IMG/VR virus record: IMGVR_UViG_2695420701_000007
Location: 1 to 33,807 of that record
DNA length: 33,807 nt
Direction: 5' to 3' (one strand)
Origin: a virus
Taxonomy: Duplodnaviria > Heunggongvirae > Uroviricota > Caudoviricetes
Shown here: positions 17,958 to 33,807 of the stretch, in pieces
Numbering within the stretch: the stretch's first letter is position 1
Layout of the letters: each line of letters starts with the position of its first letter
Notes under the pieces: model-generated
Database searches by the model: none
Seen by the model: only the letters and a program-made list of their open reading frames with translations
What the model was told of the DNA's origin: nothing
Program-made: the position numbers and the translations under genes

Positions 17958-19092
17958 CCTCTCCGGCCTCCTGTTCGTCGTACCATTCATCCAGAAGATT
18001 GCTGAGAGCTTTTCTGTCTAATTCTAAAAGTTCAGATATGAAGGTTTCCGACGCGGAACCGGCTTCCCATGCTTTACGCGATAAGACGGTTAGGCGACCT
18101 TTATAATTTAGTGCTTCCCTTATGGGATTTGGCTCGTGTCTCTTCCAGCCTTTACGATTGGCGGTTGCCCATAGGTATCTAGTGTTTTGCTGATTAATTA
18201 AATTACATTTACTAAGACGCTCAATGATGCAAGTGGCTGATACTCTGAAAATGCTTTTTAGTCTAAGGACGGTTTCCTCATACGCCCATCCACCACCTTG
18301 CATGACGAATTGTTTTCGCAACGCGCTTTCTGGTACCAAAAAACAAGCAGCAAAGTGATTAGCAACTTTTTCTTCCGGTGAAATTGCTTTGCCATTAGTT
18401 TTATAGCTTTTAGCAGGGCCATCATACTCATCACGGTGGAAGATAAGATGAGCATATTCATGGCAAATACTGAAGATTTGACGTTCTATTGAAATGCTGT
18501 CGTGAACATTTACATAAATCGCGGTACCGTATTTGTTCGAAAACGCAGAAAATCCGAATACCATCCCTTTATCGGTTTCCTCGCGATTGAACGGGATCAC
18601 TCGAATATCCGATGCTTCCAAAATGGCTACAATGTCACCAACGCAAGTAGCGTTTCCCATACCAAGACGGAAACGTTCTTCCATAGCCTTATCTTCGACT
18701 CTTCGCAAATCTTCTGCTTTGGCGGTAAAAACAGGCATTGAGTTAGGAAGATCTTCTGGCAAATTAGCATCAGCAGCTTCCTCAATTGCATTGATATTTT
18801 TTAACTTTTCAATCAACTCATTGCGAAGTCTGGCATCCAACAAATCCGGACTATCTGCTCGCATTGCAAAACGAAACTCGCCATCATCTTGCTCATAAAA
18901 ATACCCGACAGGCTTATCGAAAATCTTGCAGAGCATGATGAGTTGGGTAACGCTTGGGACGCCTAGCGCCTGCTCAAACTTACTGTAGGTTTGACGAACA
19001 ACACCGATCGCATCTGCGACGGCGCTTGCACTCATTCCTGCGTCGTTTCTGGCCTGAACCAAGCGTTCTGCTATACGCTGTTGAATGTTCAT
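17947..19092 (-). CDS. XRE-family HTH domain fused to ImmA/IrrE-type zinc metallopeptidase (COG2856-like)
   Basis: 381 aa; N-terminal HTH (MSASAVADAIGVVRQTYSKFEQ), C-terminal HExxH motif (ICHEYAHLIF) in a context typical of ImmA/IrrE peptidases; AT-rich codon usage. Confidence 0.65.
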   Translation of the reverse strand: MNIQQRIAERLVQARNDAGMSASAVADAIGVVRQTYSKFEQALGVPSVTQLIMLCKIFDKPVGYFYEQDDGEFRFAMRADSPDLLDARLRNELIEKLKNINAIEEAADANLPEDLPNSMPVFTAKAEDLRRVEDKAMEERFRLGMGNATCVGDIVAILEASDIRVIPFNREETDKGMVFGFSAFSNKYGTAIYVNVHDSISIERQIFSICHEYAHLIFHRDEYDGPAKSYKTNGKAISPEEKVANHFAACFLVPESALRKQFVMQGGGWAYEETVLRLKSIFRVSATCIIERLSKCNLINQQNTRYLWATANRKGWKRHEPNPIREALNYKGRLTVLSRKAWEAGSASETFISELLELDRKALSNLLDEWYDEQEAGEDAV

Positions 19093-19376: not shown

Positions 19377-19745
19377 CTATGCAATCCGCGCCGGATTCAT
19401 ATGGCACATGTTGTGTCTTTTTTCTGCATGGTAATGAGCTTTGTTCTCGTTAAACGGTAACACCTCATTCAGCCCGGCACTTCTGAAATCAGCGTGTAAT
19501 TGCTCCAGTACTGTTTCTTTATCAGCACCCGTTAATTCGAGATAATCCCAGAGGCTGGCGCATAAACCACAGTTTCGCGAAAATATTCTGCCTGGATTTG
19601 CTCCGTTTTTCAGCCACAAATCATAAGTAATATAAAATCCGTGAAGTTGTTGCCTGATACTTTCTTTGATTTCCTGCGCTGGCACGGTGCCTGGTAATTG
19701 CTCTCTCATTGTGAATCTCTCCTGTGTTGTGCCGGTCTGGCGCAT
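19377..19745 (-). CDS. Hypothetical protein
   Basis: 122 aa ORF in the early operon downstream of replication gene A; start uncertain (alternative Met at MREQLPG). Confidence 0.35.
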   Translation of the reverse strand: MRQTGTTQERFTMREQLPGTVPAQEIKESIRQQLHGFYITYDLWLKNGANPGRIFSRNCGLCASLWDYLELTGADKETVLEQLHADFRSAGLNEVLPFNENKAHYHAEKRHNMCHMNPARIA

Positions 19746-20137
19746 GAATGGCGCTGCGGTAAAAAGACCCTTTGCGTCAGTGCGGCCTTGCGATTGACGG
19801 CAGTCAGCGTTCTGGCCAGCGCGACATTGTGTTTGCGGGTCTGCTCTTCGTGGTACTTCTGCATGATTTTCCCGGCCGGCGTGAGTGGTTCCGGCTCTTC
19901 CGGTGAACGGCGCGGACGAACGGCAACTATCCAGCTCTGATATTCACTGCCCGGTCGCCTGTTAAGTATGTCGGTGATGGTGGTTGTGGTGGTGCGATCG
20001 GGGCTGGCCACCGTGATTTCCAGTTCGTCCCCGGGCTGTGGTCTTGTGGCTACGCCTCTCAGTGTCATGGCTGGCGTGCGCTGGCGCATAACGGCGTCGA
20101 ACTGCTGACGCTGCATGGTGCAGTGAAATCGCGTCAT
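19706..20137 (-). CDS. Hypothetical protein downstream of replication gene A
   Basis: 143 aa ORF overlapping the end of gene A; Thr/Pro/Arg-rich. Confidence 0.35.
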   Translation of the reverse strand: MTRFHCTMQRQQFDAVMRQRTPAMTLRGVATRPQPGDELEITVASPDRTTTTTITDILNRRPGSEYQSWIVAVRPRRSPEEPEPLTPAGKIMQKYHEEQTRKHNVALARTLTAVNRKAALTQRVFLPQRHSCARPAQHRRDSQ

Positions 20138-22626
20138 GATCTTACCTCCGCTGACGACTCCTGTGTGATGACGATGCGGCGGGTTGTGGCGCTCCAGTAC
20201 GCGATACGCCCGTCGCCCGGGCGAACGCGGGCACCGTTACTCACGGAAATAATGGCTGCGTCAGGCAGCTGCACACCCAGCGCGTCGAGTTCGCGGGTGA
20301 TTTGTGCGATGGTCGTGGTGTCGACAGGCACGACAACCTCCACCCTGACAGGGGTGTCTGATGCTGGTCTGGTGTTATTTTGTCCGGTATCCGTGGCGGG
20401 CGGCTGATTTTTAAGCTGTCTGATGAGCTGTTTCCGCTCGTAATGGCTCAATCCCTGCAACCATTGTGTCAGGCCATTTTCCGGAAGTGTCAGACGTTTC
20501 TCCTGCTGCCTGTTTTCTGTGCCGGTTCCGGCTGTTTTTTCGTCGCCGGGACAGTTATTGCCACGAGTCCAAGGGGCGGCAGGGCCGCCCTGAAGGTCAA
20601 AACCATTTTCGCGGGCGCTGTCTTCCGCTTCCGGTTTACGTCTTACCAGCTTCCAGTTGTCCGGATGCGTGCACACACGGGAGGATTCCCCGATGAGTGG
20701 CGACCAGATCCCGTAAATCTGTACGCTCTGTTCGCCGTAATCGTTCAGCTCATCTGCGAGGTCGTAGGCGGTGCGAATCAGGTAGTCCTTACGTGGAACA
20801 AGTACGCCGCCCTGTTTCTCTATGTAGGTGGCAAAACACCCGGCATCAGCGGCAGCAAGAACCGCATCCATTGCGTCATCCTTCAGCCGTTGCGGGCCTT
20901 CCGGGTTGCGTGCCATCTGGCTGGCAAGGCGGCGCAGTTCACGCCATACCTGACGGGAGGGGATGCCAAAGAACTGGAACTGGCGGACCCGGTGAAGGCG
21001 CGCCCAGCCGATGGCGCGTTCCACGCTTTCTGCCATCGTCTTTCCTGATTCGTCGTCGATGCGCGGTTTGCCTGTTTTCGGGTCAATGCCATCCACGGCG
21101 TGGCTGTCCAGGTTCTTTCCGATGTAGGTGGCGATATAGCTGGTCGGCGTACCTTTCGAACCGTCGACGTACTCCGCCTTAAAGCGCGGAGTTATGTCAT
21201 CGCCCAGCTCGTGGCGGTCTTCACGAATGGCAATATCGCGGGCGATGGTCACGATGCTGTCGATTTCTTCAGGATGTGCAAAGACCATCATATGCCAGTG
21301 CACCGTGCCGTCATGGTGAGGCTCCACCGTGCGGATGCCATACCAGCGCAGGCCCTTGCGGTCCAGTCTGTTACGAACGGCTTTAAAAAAAGTGTTAACC
21401 AGATAATCACTGGAATCGCGCATGGTAGCCCCGTTCCATTTGGGGTTCGGATGACCGTTCTCCGTTGTTGCGTGGTATTTTGACGGGCAGGTGACAGTCA
21501 GAAACACCGCTTTGTCGCCACGGGATTCGGCTATAAGTTCCGCCCCTTTCATGGTGGCCATCATTTCTGCCTTACGGTGAACCGGGTTACTTACTCCCGC
21601 GTAATACACTGTCTCGAGATCAATCGTGAACCCGTCTTCATTTTCCAGCATGAAACTTTTCAGGAAATCGCGTGTTTTCTCGCGCTGTGCGCGAAACTCA
21701 CTTAACGCGTCCTGGCTCAGATAGGGCGATGTTTTTCTGGAAACCAGACAGGCGGCGCGGAGTTGTTCTTCTCTCCACTCGCAACGTAAAAGCCACAGTT
21801 TGCGTTTCCACCAGTCCGCACAGGTCAGGCGAAGGATTGCGCCCGGCAGCAGTTCCGTGTCCGGTTCGTTCTTGCGGTCTTTGTCTGTTGTCAGCGCGTC
21901 ATAATGTGGAGGCATGGCGTGCAGGTGTAGCGCCATGCGGGCCAGCATCTGATACGCCTTCAGTGCCACCTCCATGGTCAGCTCGCCATCTCTGGCACCG
22001 AAACCATCACAGAGTGTTTCAAAGGAGCTGCTGAACATTGCCGCCGTCATGGTGCCCAGCGTCTGTATCTGGTGCTTGTTAAGCTGCGGCAGGTACAGCA
22101 AATCGTCCAGGCGTTCGCGTCCGGCAAGGGCGCGATAACCCGGTGTCAGCCAGCGGCTGTCGGTGCGGTCCAGTCGTTCGAATATTTTGCGCAGGGTTCC
22201 GCGCGCGTAGCCCTCTGATGGTCGACTCTTTTTGCCTTTCTGGCGGTCAGATTCCTGCTTCTTACGTAAAAAAGAGAGGCGGCGGCTCAGAGGTTCACGC
22301 AGATAAACAGGTAGCGCCTTTAGTGTGACAAATGCACGGGCCACCGGGTCTTGTTCTGTTGCCTGGCGCTTGCTGATGATGCTTTGTGTTACCTTCTCGC
22401 GCCGTTCGTCCTCATCGAGGGCGACCATGAGTTTTTTACCCATGTCTGACTGCACAAAAAAGGCTTCTTCTTCCGCCTCCCTGACTTCCTGTGCTTTCAG
22501 ATCTGCTTCCTGGTAGTAGCGTATGGCCTGTTGCAACGGGGTTTCAGGCGTAGGCTGATACTTCGCAAATGTGGCTGGGTCAATGGCCTGCCGTGGTTCG
22601 TTCCAGTCCCAGGTAAATTCACTCAT
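20134..22626 (-). CDS. A: Replication initiation endonuclease, P2 gpA-like (rolling-circle Rep)
   Basis: Listed ORF 20134-22653 (839 aa); probable start MSEFTWDWNEP. Size and position (end of early operon) match P2 gene A; contains His/Tyr-rich central region (GTVHWHMMVFAHPEE ... TPTSYIATYIGKN) compatible with HUH-type endonuclease motifs. Confidence 0.8.
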   Translation of the reverse strand: MSEFTWDWNEPRQAIDPATFAKYQPTPETPLQQAIRYYQEADLKAQEVREAEEEAFFVQSDMGKKLMVALDEDERREKVTQSIISKRQATEQDPVARAFVTLKALPVYLREPLSRRLSFLRKKQESDRQKGKKSRPSEGYARGTLRKIFERLDRTDSRWLTPGYRALAGRERLDDLLYLPQLNKHQIQTLGTMTAAMFSSSFETLCDGFGARDGELTMEVALKAYQMLARMALHLHAMPPHYDALTTDKDRKNEPDTELLPGAILRLTCADWWKRKLWLLRCEWREEQLRAACLVSRKTSPYLSQDALSEFRAQREKTRDFLKSFMLENEDGFTIDLETVYYAGVSNPVHRKAEMMATMKGAELIAESRGDKAVFLTVTCPSKYHATTENGHPNPKWNGATMRDSSDYLVNTFFKAVRNRLDRKGLRWYGIRTVEPHHDGTVHWHMMVFAHPEEIDSIVTIARDIAIREDRHELGDDITPRFKAEYVDGSKGTPTSYIATYIGKNLDSHAVDGIDPKTGKPRIDDESGKTMAESVERAIGWARLHRVRQFQFFGIPSRQVWRELRRLASQMARNPEGPQRLKDDAMDAVLAAADAGCFATYIEKQGGVLVPRKDYLIRTAYDLADELNDYGEQSVQIYGIWSPLIGESSRVCTHPDNWKLVRRKPEAEDSARENGFDLQGGPAAPWTRGNNCPGDEKTAGTGTENRQQEKRLTLPENGLTQWLQGLSHYERKQLIRQLKNQPPATDTGQNNTRPASDTPVRVEVVVPVDTTTIAQITRELDALGVQLPDAAIISVSNGARVRPGDGRIAYWSATTRRIVITQESSAEVRS

Positions 22627-23012
22627 GGTTGACACCCTGTCACGCGTTGCCATTCCTGCGAGAAGAGGGCAGAAAGACGGTTAAACTCAGTGGTGTATTC
22701 ACTCAGCGAGGCACACCCGCCAGCGGTGCGATGCGCCAGCATTGCTGCAAACACGGAGGCAGGGGAGTTGTAATACGCCAGCAGGGAGTCGCCGTGTGGT
22801 GTCAGGGTGTACAGGGCCAGACCGTGTGGTGTGAAGTCCACGCGGTAACAGTCGTCCACGATGAAATAAAGGGGGCCTGCGTTCTCTGGTTTTGTGGTGC
22901 GAGCCTGGCTGGCGCGGGCACGGAGATAGAAATCAAACATTGCCTGAAGTTTTGGAGCCAGACGGGTGTCCTGTGTGCGCACCCATTTTACGAAGTCATG
23001 ACGGTCAATCAT
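22623..23012 (-). CDS. Hypothetical protein upstream of gene A
   Basis: 129 aa ORF, stop adjacent to gene A start. Confidence 0.4.
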   Translation of the reverse strand: MIDRHDFVKWVRTQDTRLAPKLQAMFDFYLRARASQARTTKPENAGPLYFIVDDCYRVDFTPHGLALYTLTPHGDSLLAYYNSPASVFAAMLAHRTAGGCASLSEYTTEFNRLSALFSQEWQRVTGCQP

Positions 23013-23084
23013 GCTGCACCTCGCTTTGTTAAAGATGTGCGAAGGCCTCCCGCCGCAAGGTGCAGGAAAGGCCCGGAACAGGAA

Positions 23085-23315
23085 TTAATGGAGTTTGTTT
23101 TGCTGCTGGATGAGCTGTTGAAGCTCGTGCAGATCATCCGCCAGATAGCTGAATACAGCGGCGCAGTAGCTGTCTGACAGCGCGTGGCTGCGTTCATGCA
23201 GCATATTGATGTGCATGATTTGCGCGACGCGTGATGCGCGGAAAAGTCTGCGGTTGATTTCAGTCCGGATGTGACGACGCGCAGCGTATGCGCGCTGTTG
23301 TTTGCGGTTTGCCAT
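23085..23315 (-). CDS. Small basic hypothetical protein
   Basis: 76 aa, Arg-rich N-terminus (MANRKQQRAYAARRHIRTEINRRLF), follows a terminator-containing non-coding region. Confidence 0.35.
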   Translation of the reverse strand: MANRKQQRAYAARRHIRTEINRRLFRASRVAQIMHINMLHERSHALSDSYCAAVFSYLADDLHELQQLIQQQNKLH

Positions 23316-23492
23316 GATGTGGCCTCTATGTGTGTAAGTTTTGAAAACTCACCATCCAGAGCTGCGAAACTGTGGGTGGCGAGACGTACGAGGTTCGCAG
23401 TACCGGCAAACATAGAACCCGGCCCGACCGAAGTCGGCCCCGTACGCCCCACCATAATTCGTGTGCGAAAAAGATGTGGCGATACAGTACGC

Positions 23493-23515
23493 ACAAAAAA
23501 ACCGCTGGCGCGGTT
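23493..23515 (-). terminator. Rho-independent terminator candidate (minus strand)
   Basis: Minus-strand reading AACCGCGCCAGCGGTTTTTTTGTG: GC-rich hairpin (ACCGC/GCGGT) followed by a T7 run, inside a roughly 320-bp non-coding stretch. Confidence 0.5.
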
Positions 23516-23635
23516 GTGCGCTATGTTTGTCAGCGGGCTGCGAAACCCGGCACCCGTTTTATGAGGTGCAGCGGAAATGTAACCTGACTGATTGCGACAT
23601 GGCAAGCGGTTTTTTTGTGTGTGCATGATGATCAC

Positions 23636-24190
23636 TCAGTTCGGCAGCAGTTCGTACAACAGGGCGTCGGCGGCGGTCCGGCGGTTGTAGAGGTGAAACG
23701 CCGTATCATCGCTGATGTGCATTTGCATCGTGATGTTGATGTGTTTCGCGATTATGCAGAACGTCATGTTGCGTCTGTCGCGTAGCTCCGTAACCAGCTC
23801 AGCCAGACGATCGCTGTATCTGGTGCAATGGTGGCTCTCGCCGCATTTCTTAAGGCTGTAACCCCGTTTATGCAGTGTGTACCTCACGGTGCACTCGCTG
23901 CGTCCCACCTTCCGGGCCAGTTCCCGTGCGGTTTTTGCGTGACGGTTTTTGGTGAGAAAGGCGATGGCTTCTGCACTCAGCGGTGCTTTTCTCTTGCGAC
24001 CAATCAACCCGCGATTACGTAAAAAAAGAATCCGGTGCATCACTGCGCTGCGGGTTCGCTGAAGTCGTTCAGCCATTTGCCATGTGCTGTGATCCTGATA
24101 AAGCGAGATAAGCAGTTCGTCTTCCTGTTGTGTCCAGGCACTGACGTGCTTCGGTGCTTTACCTGGTCCCCCCATTGGTTTCAGAAACAT
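23636..24190 (-). CDS. Putative DNA-binding regulator with two HTH-like repeats
   Basis: 184 aa; two helix-turn-helix-like segments (STWQMAERLQRTRSAVMHRI and TARELARKVGRSECTVRYTL). Confidence 0.4.
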   Translation of the reverse strand: MFLKPMGGPGKAPKHVSAWTQQEDELLISLYQDHSTWQMAERLQRTRSAVMHRILFLRNRGLIGRKRKAPLSAEAIAFLTKNRHAKTARELARKVGRSECTVRYTLHKRGYSLKKCGESHHCTRYSDRLAELVTELRDRRNMTFCIIAKHINITMQMHISDDTAFHLYNRRTAADALLYELLPN

Positions 24191-24492
24191 GATTTGGCCT
24201 CCTTACGGCTTTCTGGTGTGGAGATGATCAGATTCAGTTTCAGGGCGGTGGCGTGTTCCTCTTTTGCCCCCGGCGAGTCCTCCCAGCCATCCAGCAGGTA
24301 AATCACATCGGCACAGTGCAGCATGGCGCTCCCGATAAGCATGTAGTCCCTGTATCTCAGCCCGTCAGGGAGTGTTGCGGGGTTGAGTACGGTATGACCC
24401 TGCATCCTCAGGCGGGTCGCCGTCATGGTGAAGGCGGTGCGGTTGAAATCAGGCTTCCCCGTCATGGGGCCAGCGATATAGATAACGGCCAT
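24181..24492 (-). CDS. Nucleoside 2-deoxyribosyltransferase-like protein (DUF4406-like)
   Basis: 103 aa starting MAVIYIAGPMTGKPDFNRTAF, the typical N-terminus of the DUF4406 / deoxyribosyltransferase-like fold found in phages. Confidence 0.5.
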   Translation of the reverse strand: MAVIYIAGPMTGKPDFNRTAFTMTATRLRMQGHTVLNPATLPDGLRYRDYMLIGSAMLHCADVIYLLDGWEDSPGAKEEHATALKLNLIISTPESRKEAKSCF

Positions 24493-25451
24493 TACATGAT
24501 CTCCGTGGTGGGGTGTGGAGCGGGAATGTGAGACAGCCAGCCCGCATTGACATCCCGGATCCGGACCTCACGGGCTGGCGGATAAACACCAATCACCTCT
24601 TTTGCCTGCTGGCGTGCACTGCTGCTGGCAGCCACAGCGCGGCGAACGCTCAGGGTGTGCAGCTCAAACGAGGAATAGATCTGCCGGGTTTCGGAGGTGT
24701 CACTGTTGGAGACCACCGGGTGGATACCGTAACGCTGCCAGGCGTTCATCATGAGCGCCGCAAGGTCACGGTGGTCTTTGCGGGTAAATGCCCGGCCGTT
24801 GTAGTGAGTGAACGCCTCTTTACCGTCCGGTGGCAGGTAGGGCGGATCGCAGTAAATGGCGATATCGCCGTGCACCGAAGAAAAACGGCGGATCTCAGCC
24901 GGCATTGTGAAGGCTGTACGGAAATCCGCGTGAATAAAGCGGGTCCGGGTCTCGTTGGCTTTATCAGCAAACAGGCGCATTTCCTGGCAGGGGAAATAAG
25001 GCATGCGGTGTTTGCCGAATGGCACATTGAATTCGCCTTTTTGGTTGGTGCGGTACAGGCCGTTAAAGCAATGGCGGTTCAGGTACAGAAACAGCGCTGC
25101 CCATTCCAGGGATTCGCCGCGTAATCTGTCGGTGGCCAGCGCGATGGTGTTAAATGCCCCGCGATGGCGTTTGTAGGCTTCCGGTGTGCCGCCATCCTTA
25201 AAGAGCGACCATGCACGATCCATTAATTCCGTGGTGTTGGTCGTCAGTTGCTGGTAGAAATTAATCAGCGCGGGGTTGCTGTCACACAATACGTAATAGT
25301 CATAATCCGTGTTCATGAAGACCGAGCCGCCGCCCACGAAGGGTTCGATCAGGCAGGCGGCTTTGGGTAAATATTCGCGCAGCTGCGGCATGATACTGAA
25401 TTTGCCGCCCGCCCATTTGAGCGGTGAGCGCTGGTTCAGAATACCTTTCAT
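24492..25451 (-). CDS. dam: DNA adenine methyltransferase (Dam-like, D12 class N6-A MTase)
   Basis: 319 aa; N-terminal LKWAGGK motif, catalytic DPPY motif (IAIYCDPPYLPP), FxGxG-like SAM region (EPFVGGGSV). Confidence 0.8.
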   Translation of the reverse strand: MKGILNQRSPLKWAGGKFSIMPQLREYLPKAACLIEPFVGGGSVFMNTDYDYYVLCDSNPALINFYQQLTTNTTELMDRAWSLFKDGGTPEAYKRHRGAFNTIALATDRLRGESLEWAALFLYLNRHCFNGLYRTNQKGEFNVPFGKHRMPYFPCQEMRLFADKANETRTRFIHADFRTAFTMPAEIRRFSSVHGDIAIYCDPPYLPPDGKEAFTHYNGRAFTRKDHRDLAALMMNAWQRYGIHPVVSNSDTSETRQIYSSFELHTLSVRRAVAASSSARQQAKEVIGVYPPAREVRIRDVNAGWLSHIPAPHPTTEIM

Positions 25452-25687
25452 GCGTCACTCTCCGGTTTTTTCCCGCGTGTGAATGGGGTGGGTTCGAGCG
25501 TGATTTCGCGCCGGATATTGCGCACGCGTAACTGCGAGCCGTCGTTCAGGCAGATCACGCGTTCATCATCCGGGCCGGTGATGTTGTCCAGCAGCGAACG
25601 GTCAGGGTTGATGTGGCGTTCCCTGATGCGGTAATGGTCGCCGGTGACAGTGCTCTCGCACAGAATGCAGATAATGGCGGGTTTCAT
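25448..25687 (-). CDS. Small hypothetical protein
   Basis: 79 aa ORF with CxxC (CILCES) at the N-terminus; ends overlap neighbours. Confidence 0.35.
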   Translation of the reverse strand: MKPAIICILCESTVTGDHYRIRERHINPDRSLLDNITGPDDERVICLNDGSQLRVRNIRREITLEPTPFTRGKKPESDA

Positions 25688-26214
25688 GCGTCAGCCCTCC
25701 ACTGCGACAACATCACGATGTGGGTGAAGGTGTACCGCCAGTAGGTTTCGTTTTTGGGGTTTTCTATGTGGCAGGTGTCCCGCATGAATGCAAAGAGTTC
25801 GTCGCGGGGATGGTTTTCAGGGTTAAAGCCGTCCCTGACGGCCACTTCATCGGTTATCTGGCGGCCCTGTATTACACCGATATCGGCAATGAAGGCCACG
25901 GCGAACGGCACGGTTTCGCCGTTCTTGTTTTCTGTGACCAGATGAATGTTGTCATACTGCCGGTAGGGCTGTCTTTTCAGGAGTCCGGCAAAGTCTGATG
26001 CGCGGGTAAATGTGGTTCCCTCCTCAAAAACCAGGGTACCGCCGGCGCTGTAATCGGGAAGAACGATGTTGCGGGTCAGGGTGTCTTCATGAAAATATTC
26101 TGCTGACTCCTGGCCCGCCTGGTAGCAATCAAACCCCGTCGGGCGAAGGGATGTGGTCTTGCGTCCGTTGCGGAATGCGTCAATAAAGCAGGGCTTAAAT
26201 TTCATCTGTAACAT
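25684..26214 (-). CDS. ASCH/PUA-like domain protein (putative)
   Basis: 176 aa; N-terminus MKFKPCFIDAFRNGRKTTSLRP resembles the start of ASCH-domain proteins. Confidence 0.4.
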   Translation of the reverse strand: MLQMKFKPCFIDAFRNGRKTTSLRPTGFDCYQAGQESAEYFHEDTLTRNIVLPDYSAGGTLVFEEGTTFTRASDFAGLLKRQPYRQYDNIHLVTENKNGETVPFAVAFIADIGVIQGRQITDEVAVRDGFNPENHPRDELFAFMRDTCHIENPKNETYWRYTFTHIVMLSQWRADA

Positions 26215-26278
26215 CGTCTTATCCTCTTCACGTATTCGTTATGGTTAAGCAGTACCCATGTCCGGCCTTCGTCCAGAC

Positions 26279-26455
26279 TTAACAGCCGGTAACGGTACAT
26301 GACGTTGATGACGCGGGCGGTACCCGCTCCAGCCGTCGCACGTGTGACCGGTCCCCCTTCAGCAGGCGACGGTATGCCGCCCTTGCTGCCCGCTCCGGCT
26401 TTCCCCCTGGCTTCATCCGGTTTTTGCGGTGTCGCGCAGGGATAATCAGCTTCAT
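26279..26455 (-). CDS. Small basic hypothetical protein (not in supplied ORF track)
   Basis: 58 codons by hand translation (MKLIIPARHRKNRMKPGGKPERAARAAYRRLLKGDRSHVRRLERVPPASSTSCTVTGC); its ATG overlaps the stop of the upstream gene (ATGA), suggesting translational coupling. Confidence 0.35.
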   Translation of the reverse strand: MKLIIPARHRKNRMKPGGKPERAARAAYRRLLKGDRSHVRRLERVPPASSTSCTVTGC

Positions 26456-26874
26456 TTGTCGGGGGTTATTTCCAGGTTTCTGGTCTTTACCCAGCGGTCT
26501 TCCTCGAAGGGGGAATCGAAACGGACGAAAACCCGGTCAATGGCGGGGCTACTGGTGCGGGTGTCAACGACCGTTCCGCGTTGCTGCGGACTGTTTTTCA
26601 GACATACGCGGGTCCCTTTGATGAATGTGGTGTGGCAGGTGTGTTCAGCACTTTCCTTTGCCGGGTCAGCTGCTGTCTGAAGGGTGGCAAGCTGATTTCT
26701 CAGACAGGTGTTTTCCTGTACCACCTGTTCAATTGCGTCTGCGGCGATAAGGTGAGGCTCCACTGACAGCACCATCATCGGGTTGTCAGTGTCAGCCATC
26801 ATTGCGGCGTAGTTGCGTAAAAACATTGCGCCCGCAAGGGCTTTATCTTTGAGGGTGAGTGTCGGATTAATCAT
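26452..26874 (-). CDS. Hypothetical protein
   Basis: 140 aa ORF in the early operon. Confidence 0.4.
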   Translation of the reverse strand: MINPTLTLKDKALAGAMFLRNYAAMMADTDNPMMVLSVEPHLIAADAIEQVVQENTCLRNQLATLQTAADPAKESAEHTCHTTFIKGTRVCLKNSPQQRGTVVDTRTSSPAIDRVFVRFDSPFEEDRWVKTRNLEITPDK

Positions 26875-26970
26875 TTTTATTTCCCTTATTCAGATTGTGC
26901 GAATCCCGCCGCGTGAGCGGTGTATTAACGAAACCGGTTAATTAACTAAAGAGGCGGCGTGCTTTACGCT

Positions 26971-27156
26971 CTACGTCTTCTTTGTGCTGAATGAATGCGT
27001 TGTATGCATCCCGTTTTTTTTCTGGCGACGTCTGTCGCGTATTTCCCGCCATGTATCAATAAGTGTCAGTATGCAGATGGCAAAAAACATTGCGGCTGCA
27101 ATCAGTGTGATAACAAATAACGACTCCGGTACACTGAATGAATAACTGAAATTCAT
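26971..27156 (-). CDS. Small single-pass membrane protein
   Basis: 61 aa; hydrophobic helix LFVITLIAAAMFFAICILTLI followed by basic tail RDRRRQKKNG. Confidence 0.4.
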   Translation of the reverse strand: MNFSYSFSVPESLFVITLIAAAMFFAICILTLIDTWREIRDRRRQKKNGMHTTHSFSTKKT

Positions 27157-27161
27157 CGTGA

Positions 27162-27404
27162 TTACTCCGTAATTATTGCGGGTTCGGGAACCATGCCATC
27201 CGTTAATTGTTTCGCCATCCGGTTAAGTTCTTTAAGGTCCTCGCTGGCTCCCGTATCTTTTGAACAAAACAGGGTGTTGCGGACGCTGAATATTCCGCAC
27301 TTCATTACTTCGAAGTGTGTTTTTCTGGCGCGGGGATTAATTTCGTTATCGAAGTAATATCCCTGCAGAAATTCGTTTACCTGTTCTGCTGTGTGTTTTC
27401 TCAT
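27162..27404 (-). CDS. Hypothetical protein
   Basis: 80 aa ORF, 5 nt upstream of the small membrane protein gene. Confidence 0.4.
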   Translation of the reverse strand: MRKHTAEQVNEFLQGYYFDNEINPRARKTHFEVMKCGIFSVRNTLFCSKDTGASEDLKELNRMAKQLTDGMVPEPAIITE

Positions 27405-27445
27405 AACGGAGTCCTCGTTAAAAATAACCGGTGATAAACCCGCTG

Positions 27446-27796
27446 TTATAACTCAGCCTGTTTAATAAAATTTTCTCCGTAAAGAAGGCGATCAACTGTG
27501 CGTAGCGCTTCGTACAACGTGAAATCCTGCCCGAACTGATTGTCGCCGCAGCTCAGAGCAAAAATGCGGTTTCCGGTAAACGGATTGCGCGGGTATTTGT
27601 GGACCACTATTCCAGCTTTCTCAATCATCCAGGTATGCTCGCCAATTTGTTTTACTGTATGGCCATCTGGTGTTGCGTGCGTCTCGTTCAGGTTATAGCG
27701 ACTGTTACTACGTGATGCACTGGTAGCGACGTGGTGTACATGGCGTTCTACGCCATTACGAAATTTGGAGTATGGATTATTAGTGTTTTTTTTCAT
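27446..27796 (-). CDS. Hypothetical protein
   Basis: 116 aa ORF in the early operon. Confidence 0.4.
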   Translation of the reverse strand: MKKNTNNPYSKFRNGVERHVHHVATSASRSNSRYNLNETHATPDGHTVKQIGEHTWMIEKAGIVVHKYPRNPFTGNRIFALSCGDNQFGQDFTLYEALRTVDRLLYGENFIKQAEL

Positions 27797-27817
27797 GATG
27801 ATGCTCTGTTCATTGTT

Positions 27818-28021
27818 TTAGCTGTTAGCCAAAGCGTCTTTTAACATCGCCACAAGGTTTACTTCAGGCTTTTCCATTTTGGCGCGTTTGGGGCGGATAA
27901 TAATTCGACCGTCAGCCAACATCTTTTTGCATGTATTAAGAGGGATACCTGTTATCTCTGCATATTTCTGCAGGGATACATAGGGGGCATTCACATTGAT
28001 ATTGATGGTTATACCTGACAT
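27818..28021 (-). CDS. Cox-like HTH regulator / excisionase-type protein
   Basis: 67 aa; APYVSLQKYAEITGIPLNTCKKMLADGRIIIRP follows the pattern of P2 Cox N-terminus (IPYQEFAKLIGKSTGAVRRMIDKGKLPVI). Confidence 0.5.
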   Translation of the reverse strand: MSGITININVNAPYVSLQKYAEITGIPLNTCKKMLADGRIIIRPKRAKMEKPEVNLVAMLKDALANS

Positions 28022-28037
28022 CCCACTAACCTCCTGA

Positions 28038-28244
28038 TCAGGAAGATTTGTTTTGTTCTTTCTGGGTTAGCTCTAGGCCGCGAAGGAAGATCATGCGCGC
28101 CATGTTAGAGGATGAGCGTTGTTCTTTAGCTGCCATCTCATCAATAAAGGCGCGCTCCTCCGCTGACAGTCGAAGTGCCAGTCTTTGACCTGTGGCGGTG
28201 TTACGCGGAATGCGTGACTTGGTGTCGTGACTAACTTGATTCAT
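28038..28244 (-). CDS. Ribbon-helix-helix-like small regulator; first gene of the early operon (Cro/Apl position)
   Basis: 68 aa; RLALRLSAEERAFIDEMA...SSNMARMIF resembles an RHH (Arc/CopG-type) fold; divergent from the repressor gene. Confidence 0.45.
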   Translation of the reverse strand: MNQVSHDTKSRIPRNTATGQRLALRLSAEERAFIDEMAAKEQRSSSNMARMIFLRGLELTQKEQNKSS

Positions 28245-28303
28245 AGTGGTACATTGTGATCATCTAATGGTTCGTGAAATTACTTTAGGGAACAAAACTT
28301 CCT
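28245..28303. promoter_or_regulatory. Divergent promoter/operator region of the lysis-lysogeny switch
   Basis: 59-bp gap between divergent repressor (plus) and early-operon (minus) starts; contains the TGATCA palindrome (with a GATC Dam site) in ACATTGTGATCATCTAATGG. Confidence 0.5.
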
Positions 28304-28717
28304 ATGTCAACAGAAAAAGAGGAACTAAGCGTCATTATTGGCCGTCGATTACGGGAGGAGCGAGAGAAAATTGGCATGACCCAAGATGATATGGCGTCGA
28401 TTTTTGAAGTTTCTACAAAGACTTGGGGGAAGTATGAAAGAGGGGTGACTACACCGGATGCAGTTATGTTGAATCTCTTGGGAGGGCGCTGCGGAGTAGA
28501 TGTCTATTACATACTTTCTGGTAGTCGTGCACATGGCATCCCTAATGCTACTGAAGATGAGATTGAGCTAATTAAAATATATCGTTCTGCACCTTTGGCT
28601 GTTAAGGCGGCAGCTTTGGCAGCCTTGACTGCTGGTAGTTTGTCTCTAGGTACAATAAGAGCTTCTGGCAAAGGCCATCGTATTGCAGGTCGTGACTATA
28701 ACGAAACGAAGGGTTAG
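28304..28717 (+). CDS. Immunity repressor, XRE-family HTH (CI/C-like)
   Basis: 137 aa; N-terminal HTH (GMTQDDMASIFEVSTKTWGKYERG); divergent from the early operon and co-oriented with integrase. Confidence 0.7.
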   Translation: MSTEKEELSVIIGRRLREEREKIGMTQDDMASIFEVSTKTWGKYERGVTTPDAVMLNLLGGRCGVDVYYILSGSRAHGIPNATEDEIELIKIYRSAPLAVKAAALAALTAGSLSLGTIRASGKGHRIAGRDYNETKG

Positions 28718-28735
28718 TGATAGTAGGGAGGTGAC

Positions 28736-29383
28736 ATGGCTGTCAACTCAAACGGTTCAGACAATCGCGTTTCTGGGCGTGATTACCACGAAAAGAACAT
28801 TCGGATAGAGCGGTATGATGGTCGTCATACAGTCAACATTGCAATCCCTTCCTGTGGGGCTGATGAGCGCCCATTAGTCAAGGCTCAGCGCCATCAACTG
28901 AAGTTGTTGGTTGATAAGATTGTTGATGTCAGCAAGGAAGAATCGTTTGTTGTCTGGCGTAAACTTCATGCTGAAATCGGTGTTGATAGCATCGATAAGA
29001 TGACGGTGAATCAGTATCCAACCGCAATTAGCTTCCTCAATGCGATGCTTGACCGACATAAAGAGCGCGACGCCTGCAAATCACTTGTAAGTCTCCTTCT
29101 TCGCAATAGTGAGAATAATGAAGCTAGACAAAAACTTCTTCGATATTGTCATATCAATTTTGGAACAGGGCGCTTAAATGATCTTACTCGCTCTCAGCTT
29201 CAGATGGCTCTTTCATGGTTAGATCAGCAAACAACAGACTGTGAAAATAATTTGCCCTCAGATAATTCTAAATTTGTCGATAAACAATCGCGATTAGTGT
29301 TTCAGCAAATAATTAAAACATATCCAAAAGAAATGGGGGTATGTTTTGTTATTGGTGTTTTATTAGGCATGATTCTTTTCTGA
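28736..29383 (+). CDS. Hypothetical C-terminally membrane-anchored protein (cargo between repressor and integrase)
   Basis: 215 aa; single C-terminal hydrophobic helix GVCFVIGVLLGMILF; AT-rich relative to the phage core; co-transcribed orientation with repressor. Confidence 0.5.
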   Translation: MAVNSNGSDNRVSGRDYHEKNIRIERYDGRHTVNIAIPSCGADERPLVKAQRHQLKLLVDKIVDVSKEESFVVWRKLHAEIGVDSIDKMTVNQYPTAISFLNAMLDRHKERDACKSLVSLLLRNSENNEARQKLLRYCHINFGTGRLNDLTRSQLQMALSWLDQQTTDCENNLPSDNSKFVDKQSRLVFQQIIKTYPKEMGVCFVIGVLLGMILF

Positions 29384-29588
29384 TAGATCGTTGTTGGAGA
29401 AATCAATTATGGCAAAAGCTTGCTTTAACGACTTTGAAAGAAATAAAAAAGATAAATTAAGCGAGCTGACAAAGGTGAGATAAGGGGGAGTGCAACTAGT
29501 AATGTAAAAAATGGTGTGAGTTACTTGTCATAGTCTTAAAGTGAAGTAATTCCTTGTTCACTAGGAAGTTCAAAGAGGTAAATGAATT

Positions 29589-29846
29589 ATGGTAACTAAT
29601 CCGCAAATTCCATTGACTGGCTTATATGTATCCAAAGTTAATCCATCTAATCGTATAGTTGTTACTGATGTTCATATTGTTTAGGATGATGACGATGAGC
29701 CAGGAGAGCTTCCTTTCTATTTGGTTACTTTTGTAAATGAGGGGGATGAGGATGATATGTTGGCTCCTTCTTGGGAGCTAGATCCTGAGGAATGGGAGCA
29801 GTTAGTTGATGAAGAGCGCTTTATGCGCGTGGAGCAACCATCTTAA
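29589..29846 (+). pseudogene. Small acidic ORF interrupted by an in-frame TAG (amber) codon
   Basis: Good SD (AGAGG) then MVTNPQIPLTGLYVSKVNPSNRIVVTDVHIV - TAG at 29682-29684 - continuing in the same frame DDDDEPGELPFYLVTFVNEGDEDDMLAPSWELDPEEWEQLVDEERFMRVEQPS to TAA at 29844-29846. Confidence 0.4.
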
Positions 29847-29872
29847 TTTATCCTTGGTGTGCACTTTTTAAG

Positions 29873-30874
29873 ATGTCTGTTCGTAAATTACCTACTGGCA
29901 AATGGCTCTGTGAATGCTACCCCTACGGAGCAGCAGGAAAACGCATTCGTAAACAGTTTGTTACTAAGGGTGAGGCGCTCTCTTATGAGCGCCGTTTAAT
30001 GAACAGTAATTTGGGGAGCGAGTTTCAGGATGGTTCTGGCCCCCGCCTTTCCGAGTTGGTTGCTCGCTGGTTTGAGATGTACGGTAAGACACTGTCTTCC
30101 GGTGAAGAGCGAAGGGCTAAACTTGAGGCGATTTGCTCCCGGTTGGGGGATCCGCTTGCTTCTCAATTTGATAAAAACATGTTTGCCACCTACAGGGAAC
30201 GGCGATTATCAGGTGAATGGAATCCAAAGGGGAAGAGGAAGCTTAGCGAAGCAACCGTTAATCGTGAGCAGTCATATCTACATGCTGTTTTTGCCGAACT
30301 GAAGCGCCTTGGGGAGTGGTCTGGTGAAAACCCCTTAACTGGCATTCGCAAATTTCGTGAGGAAGAAAAGGAACTGGCGTTTCTGTATGTAGATGAGATT
30401 GAACGCCTTCTGATTGCGTGTGATGAGTCACGGAATAAAGATTTGGGGGTTGTTGTCCGTATTGGGCTTGCGACTGGTGCTCGGTGGAGTGAAGCAGAAG
30501 GATTAAAGCAATCTCAAGTACTGCCCGGTCGAATCACATTTGTTAAAACTAAAGGAAAGAAGAACCGCACTGTACCGATTTCACCTCAATTGCAGGCTAT
30601 GCTTCCTAAAAAACGAGGAGCGCTATTTTCACCATGTTATGAGGCTTTTGACGCTGCAATTAAGAGAGCGAAGATCGAGCTTCCTGATGGGCAATTAACT
30701 CATGTGCTACGTCACACGTTTGCCAGTCATTTTATGATGCGGGGCGGAAATATTCTTGTGTTGCAAAAAATACTGGGGCATAGCGATATAAAAATGACTA
30801 TGCGTTATGCGCATTTTGCTCCAGGTCATTTAGAGGCTGCTGTTGAATTGAACCCTTTTGACAATAGAGGGTAA
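29873..30874 (+). CDS. int: Tyrosine integrase (phage integrase family)
   Basis: 333 aa; C-terminal catalytic region HVLRHTFASHFMMRGGNILVLQKILGHSDIKMTMRYAHF (HxxR ... Y); adjacent to the tRNA-derived att core. Confidence 0.85.
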   Translation: MSVRKLPTGKWLCECYPYGAAGKRIRKQFVTKGEALSYERRLMNSNLGSEFQDGSGPRLSELVARWFEMYGKTLSSGEERRAKLEAICSRLGDPLASQFDKNMFATYRERRLSGEWNPKGKRKLSEATVNREQSYLHAVFAELKRLGEWSGENPLTGIRKFREEEKELAFLYVDEIERLLIACDESRNKDLGVVVRIGLATGARWSEAEGLKQSQVLPGRITFVKTKGKKNRTVPISPQLQAMLPKKRGALFSPCYEAFDAAIKRAKIELPDGQLTHVLRHTFASHFMMRGGNILVLQKILGHSDIKMTMRYAHFAPGHLEAAVELNPFDNRG

Positions 30875-30981
30875 AAAGTGGCGATAAAAAGTGACAATAG
30901 ATTCAAATGGCGTTGTATAGAGCTATTTTCAAAGTTAATAAAATCATAAGGTTATGATTTATAAATGGTGGTTGATAGTTT

Positions 30982-31035
30982 TTAAAATCCCTCGGCGTTC
31001 GCGCTGTGCGGGTTCAAGTCCCGCTCCGGGTACCA
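30982..31035 (+). tRNA. leuZ: 3' fragment of tRNA-Leu (leuZ-type): phage att core / prophage-host junction
   Basis: TTTAAAATCCCTCGGCGTTCGCGCTGTGCGGGTTCAAGTCCCGCTCCGGGTACCA matches the anticodon-loop-to-CCA part of E. coli tRNA-Leu(UAA) from memory; the sequence upstream does not complete the 5' acceptor stem or D arm, so this is a partial copy. Confidence 0.7.
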
Positions 31036-31080
31036 TGGGAAAGATAAGAATAAAATCAAAGTAATAAGCAGTGTCGTGAA

Positions 31081-31103
31081 ACCACCTTCGGGTGGTTTTT
31101 TTG
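31081..31103 (+). terminator. Rho-independent terminator downstream of the tRNA
   Basis: ACCACCTTCGGGTGGTTTTTTTG: 6-bp GC-rich stem, TTCG tetraloop, T7 run. Confidence 0.75.
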
Positions 31104-31230
31104 TGCCTGCAACTTGTCGTTACACCCTCCTTAATTTTTAATCACCGGCAAAGCCACTCAAAAAGTATCTCTGATACGGACCGGCATGTAAGATAGGTGC
31201 TGGCGAGTTGAGATCCACAAGGAAAAGCGT

Positions 31231-31896
31231 ATGAAAACGGGACCGTTAAACGAAAGTGAGTTGGAATGGCTGGACGATATTCTGACCAAATACAACACTA
31301 ACCACGCCATCCTTGATGTGGCGGAGCTGGACGGTTTATTGACGGCGGTGTTGAGTTCTCCGCAAGAGATTGAACCGGAACAGTGGCTGGTTGCCGTGTG
31401 GGGTGGGGCTGACTATGTGCCGCGCTGGGCGTCAGAGAAAGAGATGACGCGCTTTATGAACCTGGCTTTTCAACATATGGCCGATACCGCAGAGCGTCTG
31501 AACGAATTCCCGGAGCAGTTTGAGCCGTTATTCGGCTTGCGAGAAGTTGATGGCAGCGAGCTGACGATTGTTGAGGAGTGGTGCTTTGGCTATATGCGGG
31601 GCGTGGCACTTTCTGACTGGTCAACGTTGCCCGATTCGTTAAAACCAGCGCTGGAGGCGATTGCGCTGCACGGTACTGAGGAAAACTTCGAGCGGGTAGA
31701 AAAGATGTCGCCAGAAGCGTTTGAAGAGAGCGTAGATGCCATTCGACTGGCGGCGCTTGATCTACATGCGTACTGGATGGCGCATCCGCAGGAAAAAGCT
31801 GTTCAGCAACCGATCAAAGCAGAAGAGAAACCGGGGCGTAACGATCCTTGCCCGTGCGGTAGTGGTAAGAAATTTAAGCAGTGCTGCCTGCATTAA
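31231..31896 (+). CDS. yecA: YecA-like SEC-C motif protein (UPF0149)
   Basis: 221 aa ending in the SEC-C zinc motif [15 protein letters not shown]; host gene following the leuZ locus. Confidence 0.8.
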
Positions 31897-31957
31897 GAGG
31901 CCAAATTGGGTGTCAGCGTTAATTCTGGCACCCAATAAGGAATTTGAGGCTATCTGA

Positions 31958-33169
31958 TCACCCCACTTCTGGTAACAACCCTGCCGCAATCAAAAATTGC
32001 ACGCCAATCACAGCAATACCACAGAGAAACACCACCACCAGCGCCGGACGACCACCTTTGACCCGGTAACCCGCCTGAGGATTGTGCTTTCTGCTTTGCC
32101 AGGTCAACAGCGAAGGGATAATCAATGCCAGTACCGCCAGCGCCACACCGGCGTAACCCAGCGCCATCACAAATCCTCGTGGATAAAACAGTGCAAACGC
32201 CAACGGCGGCAGAAAGGTAATTGCACCAGTTTGCAACCGTCCACCAACGGTATTTGAACGCTGAAATAAATCAGCCAGATAATCAAATAAGCCTAACGCA
32301 ACGCCGAGAAATGACGTGGCGAGGGCTAAATCAGCAAATAAATGCACTGCCAGCTCAACATGCGGAGAGGCCACCATTTCGCGTAACGCCTGTAACAGCC
32401 CGTTTAATCCAGCATGATTAGCCAGCAATCCCATAAAGGTTGTTGAATCAATGCTGCCAAGCGTTGCCACCTGCCAGAAAATATATGCCACCAGGGGGAT
32501 CGCACTACCGGTTATAAACACCCAGCGTAGCTTACGAACGTTGCCATCCATATAGCTGACAATACTCGGCACGCTACCGTGAAAACCAAATGAGGTAAAA
32601 ATCACCGGGATTGCTGACAGAGCCAGCCCCTGTTGCAACGGCAGGGTTAAAAGATTCACTTTGTGAATATGCGGTAGCAGCAATACCAGCATCACCACCA
32701 GAAAAATAATTTTGGCGCTGAACAGAAAACGGTTAAATAAATCGACCAGCGATGTTCCAACACAAACCACGCCACCGGCAACAAAAGTGAACAACAGCAC
32801 GCCAGCGGTTGCCGACATTGAAATACCTGTCCAGTCGCTGATGCTGGAGGCCAACAATTCACCGACACCGCTGATGTATGCCGCAGTCAGAGCATACATT
32901 AAGAACATCATACTGAAGCCCGTCAGCCATTGACCGTAGCGTCCCAGATAGCGTTTTGCCAGCGTGCCCAGACCGGTATCTGCCGGAACATGCTGGTACA
33001 CCTCCAGCAGTAATAGCGCCGTGTAGCACATCAACGCCCAAAGCCCAATCAACAAGATTAACGTAACGCTAAAACCAACACCGGCCGCAGCCAGCGGCAT
33101 TGCCAGCATGCCTGCGCCAATTGTGGTTCCCGCCACGATAAAAACACTTCCCAGGGTTCTGTTTTTCAC
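31958..33169 (-). CDS. tyrP: Tyrosine-specific transport protein (aromatic amino acid permease family)
   Basis: 403 aa polytopic membrane protein; size, hydrophobicity profile and synteny with yecA/yecH match E. coli tyrP. Confidence 0.8.
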
Positions 33170-33359
33170 GCTTTCTTCTGTCCTGACGATCTTTATGAGT
33201 GATATCTGCGGCGCAGGTTAAGGCATAACGGCTGCTTCGTCAAACCGACGTTACATATAGTGTAAATATAAATGTACAATAAAAAGCATTCAGTCCTGCG
33301 CTGGCGCAAAGTCTTCATAAGCGGCAATCGCTACGCTAGGCTTTTTTTGAGGAGGAACG

Positions 33360-33599
33360 ATGGACTCTATTCACGGTCATGAAGTGTTAAATATGATGAT
33401 TGAATCAGGCGAGCAATATACGCATGCCAGTCTGGAAGCTGCGATTAAAGCGCGTTTTGGTGAACAGGCACGTTTTCACACCTGCTCGGCAGAAGGGATG
33501 ACAGCGGGAGAGCTGGTAGCGTTTCTGGCAGCAAAAGGCAAATTTATACCTTCGAAAGACGGTTTTTCGACCGATCAGAGTAAGATTTGCCGTCACTGA
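33360..33599 (+). CDS. yecH: YecH-like small metal-binding protein (DUF2492)
   Basis: 79 aa with CSAEGM ... KICRH; synteny between tyrP and ftnA. Confidence 0.7.
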   Translation: MDSIHGHEVLNMMIESGEQYTHASLEAAIKARFGEQARFHTCSAEGMTAGELVAFLAAKGKFIPSKDGFSTDQSKICRH

Positions 33600-33635
33600 T
33601 TTGAAACGGCGGCAGTAAACCTGCCGCCGGAGAGC

Positions 33636-33711
33636 ATTAGTTTTGTGTGTCGAGGGTAGAGAGTTCTTTGTCGATAAAATACAGACCTTCGCCGCTTTTG
33701 CCTGCCAGGCT
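33636..33711 (-). pseudogene. ftnA: 3' fragment of ferritin gene ftnA, truncated by IS10 insertion
   Basis: Minus-strand translation SLAGKSGEGLYFIDKELSTLDTQN-stop matches the C-terminus of E. coli FtnA; upstream codons are replaced by IS10 end sequence. Confidence 0.7.
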
Positions 33712-33807
33712 CTGATGAATCCCCTAATGATTTTGGTAAAAATCATTAAGTTAAGGTGGATACACATCTTGTCATATGATCAAATGGTTTCGCGAAAAAT
33801 CAATAAT
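33712..33807 (+). mobile_element. IS10 (Tn10-type) outside end, partial; extends beyond the window
   Basis: CTGATGAATCCCCTAATGATTTTGGTAAAAATCATTAAGTTAAGGTGGATACACATCTTGTCATATGATCAAATGGTTTCGCGAAAAATCAATAAT matches the IS10 outside terminus as I recall it (terminal inverted repeat, pIN promoter region with its GATC site). Confidence 0.75.

Follow-up and report, generated by a model that had tools for sequence, protein, structure and literature searches.

Among the closest described counterparts of the locus reported here is the lysogeny module of phages P2 and 186. Like this module, the window (the whole stretch of viral DNA that was analysed, 33,807 nucleotides) has a repressor gene and int on the + strand and genes for a Cox-like protein, an Arc-like protein and an A endonuclease on the - strand; unlike the P2/186 module, it has a gene for a Flk_N-like membrane protein and a DUF8087 gene inserted between repressor and int. 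DUF8087 is a catalogued family (Pfam PF26332, phrog_17127) of very acidic, beta-rich proteins of about 80 aa with one domain, encoded beside the integrase gene in lysogeny modules of P2-like (Peduoviridae) prophages of Enterobacterales. With its described members the window shares the gene order repressor, Flk_N-like, DUF8087, int as well as a translation that is the same save for residue 32, the difference being that the window copy is broken by a TAG at codon 32.

Amber codons within phage genes are familiar from laboratory amber mutants of lambda or P2, which are grown on supE or supF hosts. The window allele has the same Gln-to-UAG change as these classical alleles, and a supE host would restore the residue; however, it is a natural allele, it lies in a non-essential accessory gene and its carrier CFSAN029787 is not supE. 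Stop codons of phages can also be recoded: in crAss-like and Lak phages TAG is reassigned to Gln with the aid of phage suppressor tRNAs, and A1 of Q-beta is a product of programmed read-through. The window resembles these phages in having an in-frame TAG where relatives have Gln, but differs from them in that it has a single TAG, present in just one gene and one sub-lineage, that it encodes no suppressor tRNA, that TAG is a normal stop elsewhere in it and that the relatives are without the stop. The comparisons below indicate that the amber is very probably an ordinary CAG-to-TAG nonsense allele of an accessory DUF8087 gene in one P2-like prophage sub-lineage, causing loss of function and not recoding.

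The window is a P2-like (Peduoviridae) prophage with capsid, terminase and portal of the P2 family and an ogr/Delta-type zinc-finger gene. Its - strand encodes a Cox-like excisionase-repressor (phrog_575), an Arc-like repressor (phrog_3431) and a GPA-type A replication endonuclease. The row on the + strand starts with an HTH repressor-like gene (28304..28717; Pfam HTH_19/HTH_31 and PHROG transcriptional repressor families), which ends in TAG, and continues with the gene of a 215-aa protein with a Flk_N-like domain and a hydrophobic C-terminus (28736..29383; phrog_5825 with E=1.8e-86, NCBIfam Flk as a partial match with E=2.8e-15). The interrupted DUF8087 ORF is third and the gene of a tyrosine integrase follows immediately downstream (29873..30874; Pfam Int_N with E=3e-32, Phage_integrase with E=2e-22); exactly this integrase protein is found on 167 contigs. 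Precomputed PF27202 matches exist for the identical 215-aa protein of L022 (CXDJ01000036.1, GCA_001260415.1), a locus (19589-33807) 100% identical to the window, and for the 215-aa homologues of the more distant loci L015 and L016; a membrane-anchored role in lysogenic conversion or exclusion could fit this protein.

Some observations from other parts of the prophage are recorded here in passing. The Arc-like repressor is encoded by a 68-aa ORF at 28038-28244 (-), between the Cox-like gene and the HTH repressor (phrog_3431 with E=2.7e-27). PGAP skips this ORF in related genomes and instead places a small 'hypothetical protein' on the + strand of this DNA, which it marks as a partial pseudogene in the TAG lineage; this + strand call is probably a mis-annotation. 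At 17439-19092 (-), between the ogr-like and the partition genes, the ORF of a 183-aa PIN-domain protein overlaps that of a 381-aa HTH-domain protein, and at this typical position of P2 cargo the two may form a toxin-antitoxin or defence pair. The final 96 nt of the window (33712-33807) are not part of the yecH-ftnA region and have matches at thousands of places in chromosomes and plasmids; the terminal sequence, CTGATGAATCCCCTAATGATTTTGGTAAAAATCATTAAG..., is presumably the outside end of IS10, and it was probably an IS insertion that ended the contig here.

The interrupted ORF was read directly from the sequence: from an ATG at 29589-29591 it runs for 31 sense codons (MVTNPQIPLTGLYVSKVNPSNRIVVTDVHIV), meets an in-frame TAG at 29682-29684 (codon 32) and continues past it in the same frame for 53 sense codons (DDDDEPGELPFYLVTFVNEGDEDDMLAPSWELDPEEWEQLVDEERFMRVEQPS) to a TAA at 29844-29846. 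Asp and Glu abound in the stretch past the TAG, and for the conceptual 85-aa product the pI is 4.05, with 21 D+E versus 4 K+R. The Shine-Dalgarno-like AGAGG at 29574..29578 (+) is conserved in the E. coli and E. albertii relatives; it lies 10 nt before the ATG, which is a rather long spacing, and also 3 nt before an out-of-frame ATG at 29582. The TAA is followed by int after 26 nt, at 29873. An earlier note on this DNA had described a small acidic ORF upstream of int that reads from an AGAGG over 31 codons to a TAG and on in the same frame to a TAA, and this description is accurate, except that the 54 codons it gave for the second part include the stop.

By our own arithmetic, the chance of finding 53 open codons after a stop is about (61/64)^53 = 0.08, hence not improbable, and we regard the ORF as real because an uninterrupted homologous gene is present in relatives, not because of the length of the open frame. 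Nor is the TAG a sequencing error, as exactly this sequence was recovered from four complete E. coli genomes, an IMG/VR contig, two NCTC assemblies and several independent sequencing runs.

Among 5426 complete E. coli genomes, 14 hold the locus: ten have it uninterrupted and four carry the identical TAG sequence. The ten intact loci are about 89% identical to the window and their ORF, of 85 aa or, in the EC2 type, of 95 aa, is labelled either 'DUF8087 domain-containing protein' or 'hypothetical protein' by PGAP. The four TAG genomes are 100% identical to the window across 29400-29900. For three of them, all that PGAP retains is a TTG-initiated tail of 41 aa, named 'DUF8087 domain-containing protein'; in the fourth, CFSAN029787, there is no annotation between the 215-aa gene and int.

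Small differences at the start of the gene were seen in some of the intact alleles. EC2-type alleles (L003 2648-2700) have a 1-nt insertion directly after the ATG (ATGGATAAC), which is compensated by an upstream in-frame ATG and yields the 95-aa product. In the alleles of Bongo and of E. albertii (L002/L016), an upstream ATG opens an 11-codon mini-ORF, MRKSKEVNELW, the TAA of which overlaps the DUF8087 start. This upstream ATG (equivalent to window 29560-29600) is missing in the window, which reads ACTAGG.

A search of 5.8 billion proteins found 23 homologues, all with precomputed PF26332; their sources are E. coli, E. albertii, Yersinia, Serratia, Raoultella, Klebsiella, Edwardsiella and Izhakiella. 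Those that are neither damaged nor chimeric are single ORFs of 76-109 aa that align across the stop position, and the closest of them have Q there. There are two exceptions among the 23: P0004 has a frameshift, and P0005 probably stems from a chimeric assembly of metagenome data. P0005 (85 aa, from an ENA contig of 1477 bp) has C-terminal 53 residues identical to the stranded half of the window gene, joined exactly at the stop position, with R for the stop, to an unrelated N-terminus (MKNMNMKERYWTMNLQLFAGDGG...) with a Firmicutes-phage-like look. An exhaustive search of 1.84 billion representative proteins returned 56 clusters that match the family profile; all are single ORFs of at most 132 aa apart from three proteins of 960-1922 aa, which are taken to be false hits caused by acidic repeats. 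P0002, an intact sister protein, has a full-length match to phrog_17127 (residues 1-84, E=2.3e-39), and the conceptual translation of the window gene is 98-99% identical to P0002.

A literature search returned no paper naming DUF8087 and tblastn against 50,697 deposited phage genomes returned no member. A direct Pfam scan of the window gene gave nothing, the local Pfam copy being one without PF26332, and the local copies of Pfam and NCBIfam gave no match for family members. Two homologues bear a UniRef name that suggests a relationship to DUF1292 (PF06949); this was dropped, as no significant profile match was found, neither at E<=1 in 21 family members nor at E<=0.01 in 10 distant members.

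The lesion itself is best seen in sister prophages with identical Int, L031 (GCA_045077765.1) and L034 (GCA_043010725.1), in which the gene is intact and encodes 85 aa. Within the gene, the window differs from both at one base only: position 29682 is T in the window and C in the sisters, so that GTT CAG GAT reads GTT TAG GAT and the ancestral Gln32 is replaced by amber (29682..29684, +); the translations are identical save for this residue. Codon 32 is CAG, CTG (Leu) or AAG (Lys) in less close relatives, and in other genera the residue is Asp, Glu or Gln. This variable position borders a loop, and only one sub-lineage has the stop. A comparison with homologous loci had been proposed in the earlier note, and its outcome is that the TAG position is a sense codon in the relatives (CAG, CTG, AAG and codons for Asp or Glu). 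The same note had considered a recent nonsense mutation in a cargo gene as one possible cause; this is supported by the identical-Int sisters, which carry CAG in an otherwise identical gene.

Deamination of 5-methylcytosine at a Dcm site (CCWGG) was considered as origin of the amber. Such a site is present in some relatives: the distant, intact loci L015 and L016 read GTC CAG G, that is CCAGG, and Bongo reads CCTGG. The idea was dropped because the allele of L031/L034, the immediate ancestor, reads TCAGG and has no Dcm site, which leaves a plain C-to-T transition.

Are the two parts of the interrupted frame one gene? Among intact homologues, dN/dS (Nei-Gojobori) is 0.1-0.3 before the stop position and 0.1-0.4 after it and, by these ratios, both halves are under purifying selection. 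An AlphaFold2 model of P0002, built from the family alignment, has a mean pLDDT of 78.7 and shows a single small beta-rich domain with strands at residues 11-15, 22-31, 42-49, 60-63 and 77-80 and a helix at 65-73. In the model, the acidic loop that links strands 2 and 3 begins at residue 32. The 31 codons before the amber (29589..29684 including the stop, +), the sole product expected under normal translation, correspond to strands 1-2, and as the stop falls between strands 2 and 3, the 31-residue product would therefore contain just two of the strands that make up the sheet. The acidic loop, strands 3-5 and the helix are encoded by the stranded C-terminal 53 codons with the TAA (29685..29846, +), a stretch identical to that of the intact sister alleles. 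A member of the family is expected to be one uninterrupted ORF of about 75-110 aa, and the TAG at codon 32 makes the window copy a disrupted allele, a pseudogene.

Gene callers have split the locus in various ways. The exact 31-aa product has been called on at least 24 contigs in public assemblies and a 29-aa product on 73 contigs; both are on record (CSQ73381.1, CSQ73386.1), with organism labels that include 'Shigella sonnei'. The 41-aa TTG-started ORF called by PGAP has no exact record in a large protein collection, where the 31-aa and 29-aa pieces are found instead. The 29-aa product would be a hypothetical acidic peptide from a possible internal restart, with GAGG at 29748-29751 and an in-frame ATG at 29757 (29748..29846, +). 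This ATG encodes the invariant Met57. A conserved second product from this start seems improbable, as the GAGG is missing in the Serratia and Yersinia genes; because of this absence, the GAGG at 29748 is probably an incidental by-product of Glu and Asp codons.

These calls of 31-aa and 29-aa or 41-aa ORFs, together with the fact that an open run of 53 codons after a stop is not rare by chance, would suit a locus of two separate small genes, or of no gene at all, with a frame that is continuous by accident. However, the intact homologues are all single ORFs over both parts with low dN/dS in both, the predicted model is one domain and the PHROG match extends over the full length; we consider such a chance arrangement virtually impossible. 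Where the earlier note had allowed for two separate genes, or for two halves with unrelated conservation, the opposite was found: the homologues are single ORFs and their halves are conserved together.

A different question is whether the TAG is decoded. Of 37 ORFs picked as likely genes of the window, three end in TAG, including the repressor in the same gene row. As TAG is an ordinary terminator of three other genes, the window uses the standard code and a reassignment of the genetic code is ruled out. ARAGORN found no complete tRNA gene in the window or in related prophage loci. The RNA following the stop has no evident structure either: the fold of 29670-29770 is no better than that of shuffled sequence (z=-0.9). 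Of the host side, one TAG carrier was inspected: in the glnX-glnV cluster of CFSAN029787 both tRNA-Gln genes have the wild-type CTG anticodon, and a supE host is rejected for this strain. Exact supE (glnV with CUA anticodon) is present in 155 of 5424 E. coli genomes and, of 40 listed, most are recognisable K-12 laboratory strains. The in-frame stop is not conserved among the homologues.

Still, several features would suit a leaky or suppressor-dependent expression, in which the TAG is decoded at a useful rate, by a suppressor or owing to its context, and the protein is made in small and possibly regulated amounts. Gln is the ancestral residue, and in suppressor-free E. coli it is also the residue that near-cognate tRNA-Gln is reported to insert at UAG, which would make any read-through product wild type. 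The downstream half has no further damage in the window and the TAG allele is widespread. Absence of further decay past the stop is, however, expected since the mutation is young. The base after the stop is G, and G after UAG gives efficient termination in E. coli; with this context, with no tRNA in the window and wild-type glnV and glnX in CFSAN029787, with the normal TAG stops of three other window genes and with a stop that no relative conserves and no evident stimulatory structure accompanies, useful decoding of the TAG seems very improbable. Read-through or suppressor-dependent expression, which the earlier note had put forward as the other possible cause, hence finds no support on any of these counts: conservation of the stop, tRNA genes of the window, TAG usage, RNA structure, and the glnV and glnX genes of CFSAN029787.

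The position of the gene next to int raises the possibility that the amber affects integrase expression. In E. coli, E. albertii, Erwinia and Izhakiella the DUF8087 gene directly precedes int; in Serratia it directly follows int, overlapping the int stop by 8 nt, and in Yersinia it lies beside an int remnant. This position beside an integrase gene, an empirical association drawn from the examined loci and not a published definition, is also seen in the window. Because the two genes are consistently adjacent in the lysogeny module, DUF8087 is probably co-expressed with int.

The insertion site of the prophage is the 3' part of a tRNA-Leu gene that has yecA and tyrP as neighbours. Its junction with the chromosome, attR, is at 30981..31035 (+), where the window has the leuZ-type 3' part of the tRNA from anticodon loop to CCA, not a complete tRNA according to ARAGORN; we take this remnant to be leuZ. 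The junction was compared with a copy of the prophage that has integrated elsewhere: in L027 (run SRR11479054, 3368-3400) this end of the prophage, with the TAG allele, abuts frvX in place of the tRNA remnant; the joining point is 30992, where the identity of the window with this copy also stops. In ST99 strains whose frvX is uninterrupted, the gene reads CACAAGGGATTTAAAATCCCT/GGTGTGATTGG at the junction, marked by the slash (L035 377-410, CFSAN029787). The frvX site (CACAAGGGATTTAAAATCCCT/GG) is a copy of the tRNA-Leu anticodon arm, the normal att core. Judged by this shared core, frvX is a natural secondary attachment site of the P2-like integrase and the site-specific integration is genuine. 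Integration at this site truncates frvX. As a TAG-bearing copy has integrated in frvX, Int is expressed and active behind the amber allele, and DUF8087 is therefore evidently dispensable for integration.

These data bear on the idea that the inactivation was selected, either as DUF8087 is costly to the lysogen or as the early stop alters Int through lost coupling or polarity. The idea is suggested by the fact that DUF8087 adjoins int in every locus examined, by the lack of an obvious Shine-Dalgarno sequence for int, by a hairpin (29839-29846 with 29868-29875) that would bury the int AUG in the minimum free energy fold of the window, and by the higher number of TAG than of CAG alleles among prophages with identical Int. 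However, the hairpin at the int start is no better than in shuffled sequences (z=-0.74) and is not kept in relatives, and Int is made, as the frvX copy demonstrates; translational coupling or polarity on int via the hairpin was discarded as unsupported on these grounds. One outbreak clone, ST99, has been sampled heavily, which accounts for the excess of TAG alleles. Sporadic damage in other lineages, namely the frameshift of P0004, an additional frameshift in L033 and a truncation within the decayed prophage of L004, is the pattern expected of a dispensable gene under drift. Taken together, we regard selection for the loss, or a regulatory effect of the stop on int, as very improbable.

The TAG allele is carried by the four complete genomes, which are of O96:H19/ST99-type E. 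coli, by the IMG/VR contig, the two NCTC assemblies and another draft, and by several sequencing runs. CFSAN029787 is an O96:H19 enteroinvasive E. coli of ST99 from Italy, 2012 (PMC10470518). One copy, CP091384.1, has an extra frameshift in the interrupted gene, which may be a sequencing error. The TAG allele appears to have a single origin, because the compared TAG copies lack differences from the window: L010 and L011 have none over 24000-31000 and L001 has none from 26900 to the prophage end.

Of the 24 longest contigs with identical Int, the TAG groups are L030 (with 17 similar places, for which the allele is inferred from the lack of a called gene and not read directly), L032 and L033, and the CAG groups are L031 and L034 (with 2 more such places); the TAG groups thus outnumber the CAG groups in this set. 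In other parts the TAG prophages have diversified. Between the window and the ST99 copies, about 230 substitutions fall in the replication-gene region 20500-24000, which is 94.4% identical, and a few in the chromosomal flank; the segment 20500-24000, the region of the A gene, looks like a recombinational mosaic. An inserted IS600 disrupts the plasmid-partition-like gene of the CFSAN029787 copy (L010 8608-9967, about window position 19410) and of the IMG/VR contig L011, and is absent in the window. We infer that the predominance of the allele in the databases stems from the clonal expansion of its hosts, O96:H19/ST99 enteroinvasive E. coli and their relatives, and from how heavily these were sampled, not from selection on the stop.

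The history of an ordinary nonsense allele would then be as follows. A C-to-T transition at 29682 turned the Gln32 codon CAG into TAG in one sub-lineage. Translation from the ATG at 29589 would since stop mid-domain, 31 residues in, and the function of the gene would be lost; from what is known of UAG decoding in E. coli, rare near-cognate reading by tRNA-Gln may still yield traces of full-length wild-type protein. The gene appears to be dispensable for the phage, as the TAG prophage exists in several host backgrounds, with a recombinant replication segment and at a second att site.

The frequency of the allele and its persistence through diversification (the A-gene segment, the flanks, the second site) would look the same if loss or attenuation were favoured. 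In that case the allele would be either attenuated, with read-through by tRNA-Gln providing a low dose, or beneficial, with the loss changing the behaviour of the prophage and aiding its spread with O96:H19/ST99 enteroinvasive E. coli. We give little credence to this; if it were true, DUF8087 would be a previously unrecognised accessory factor of P2-like integrases, and the beneficial version could involve, for example, an altered control of excision or integration or an altered interaction with a host factor.

As an ordinary nonsense allele, the amber has little importance beyond annotation: the proper label of the locus is a disrupted DUF8087 gene with an internal stop (Gln32 to amber), not a 41-aa protein or two tiny ORFs. 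The C/T difference at 29682 is a clean marker for sub-lineages of this P2-like prophage in ST99-type E. coli, and natural CAG and TAG carriers with an otherwise identical lysogeny module are a ready isogenic pair for probing the role of DUF8087.
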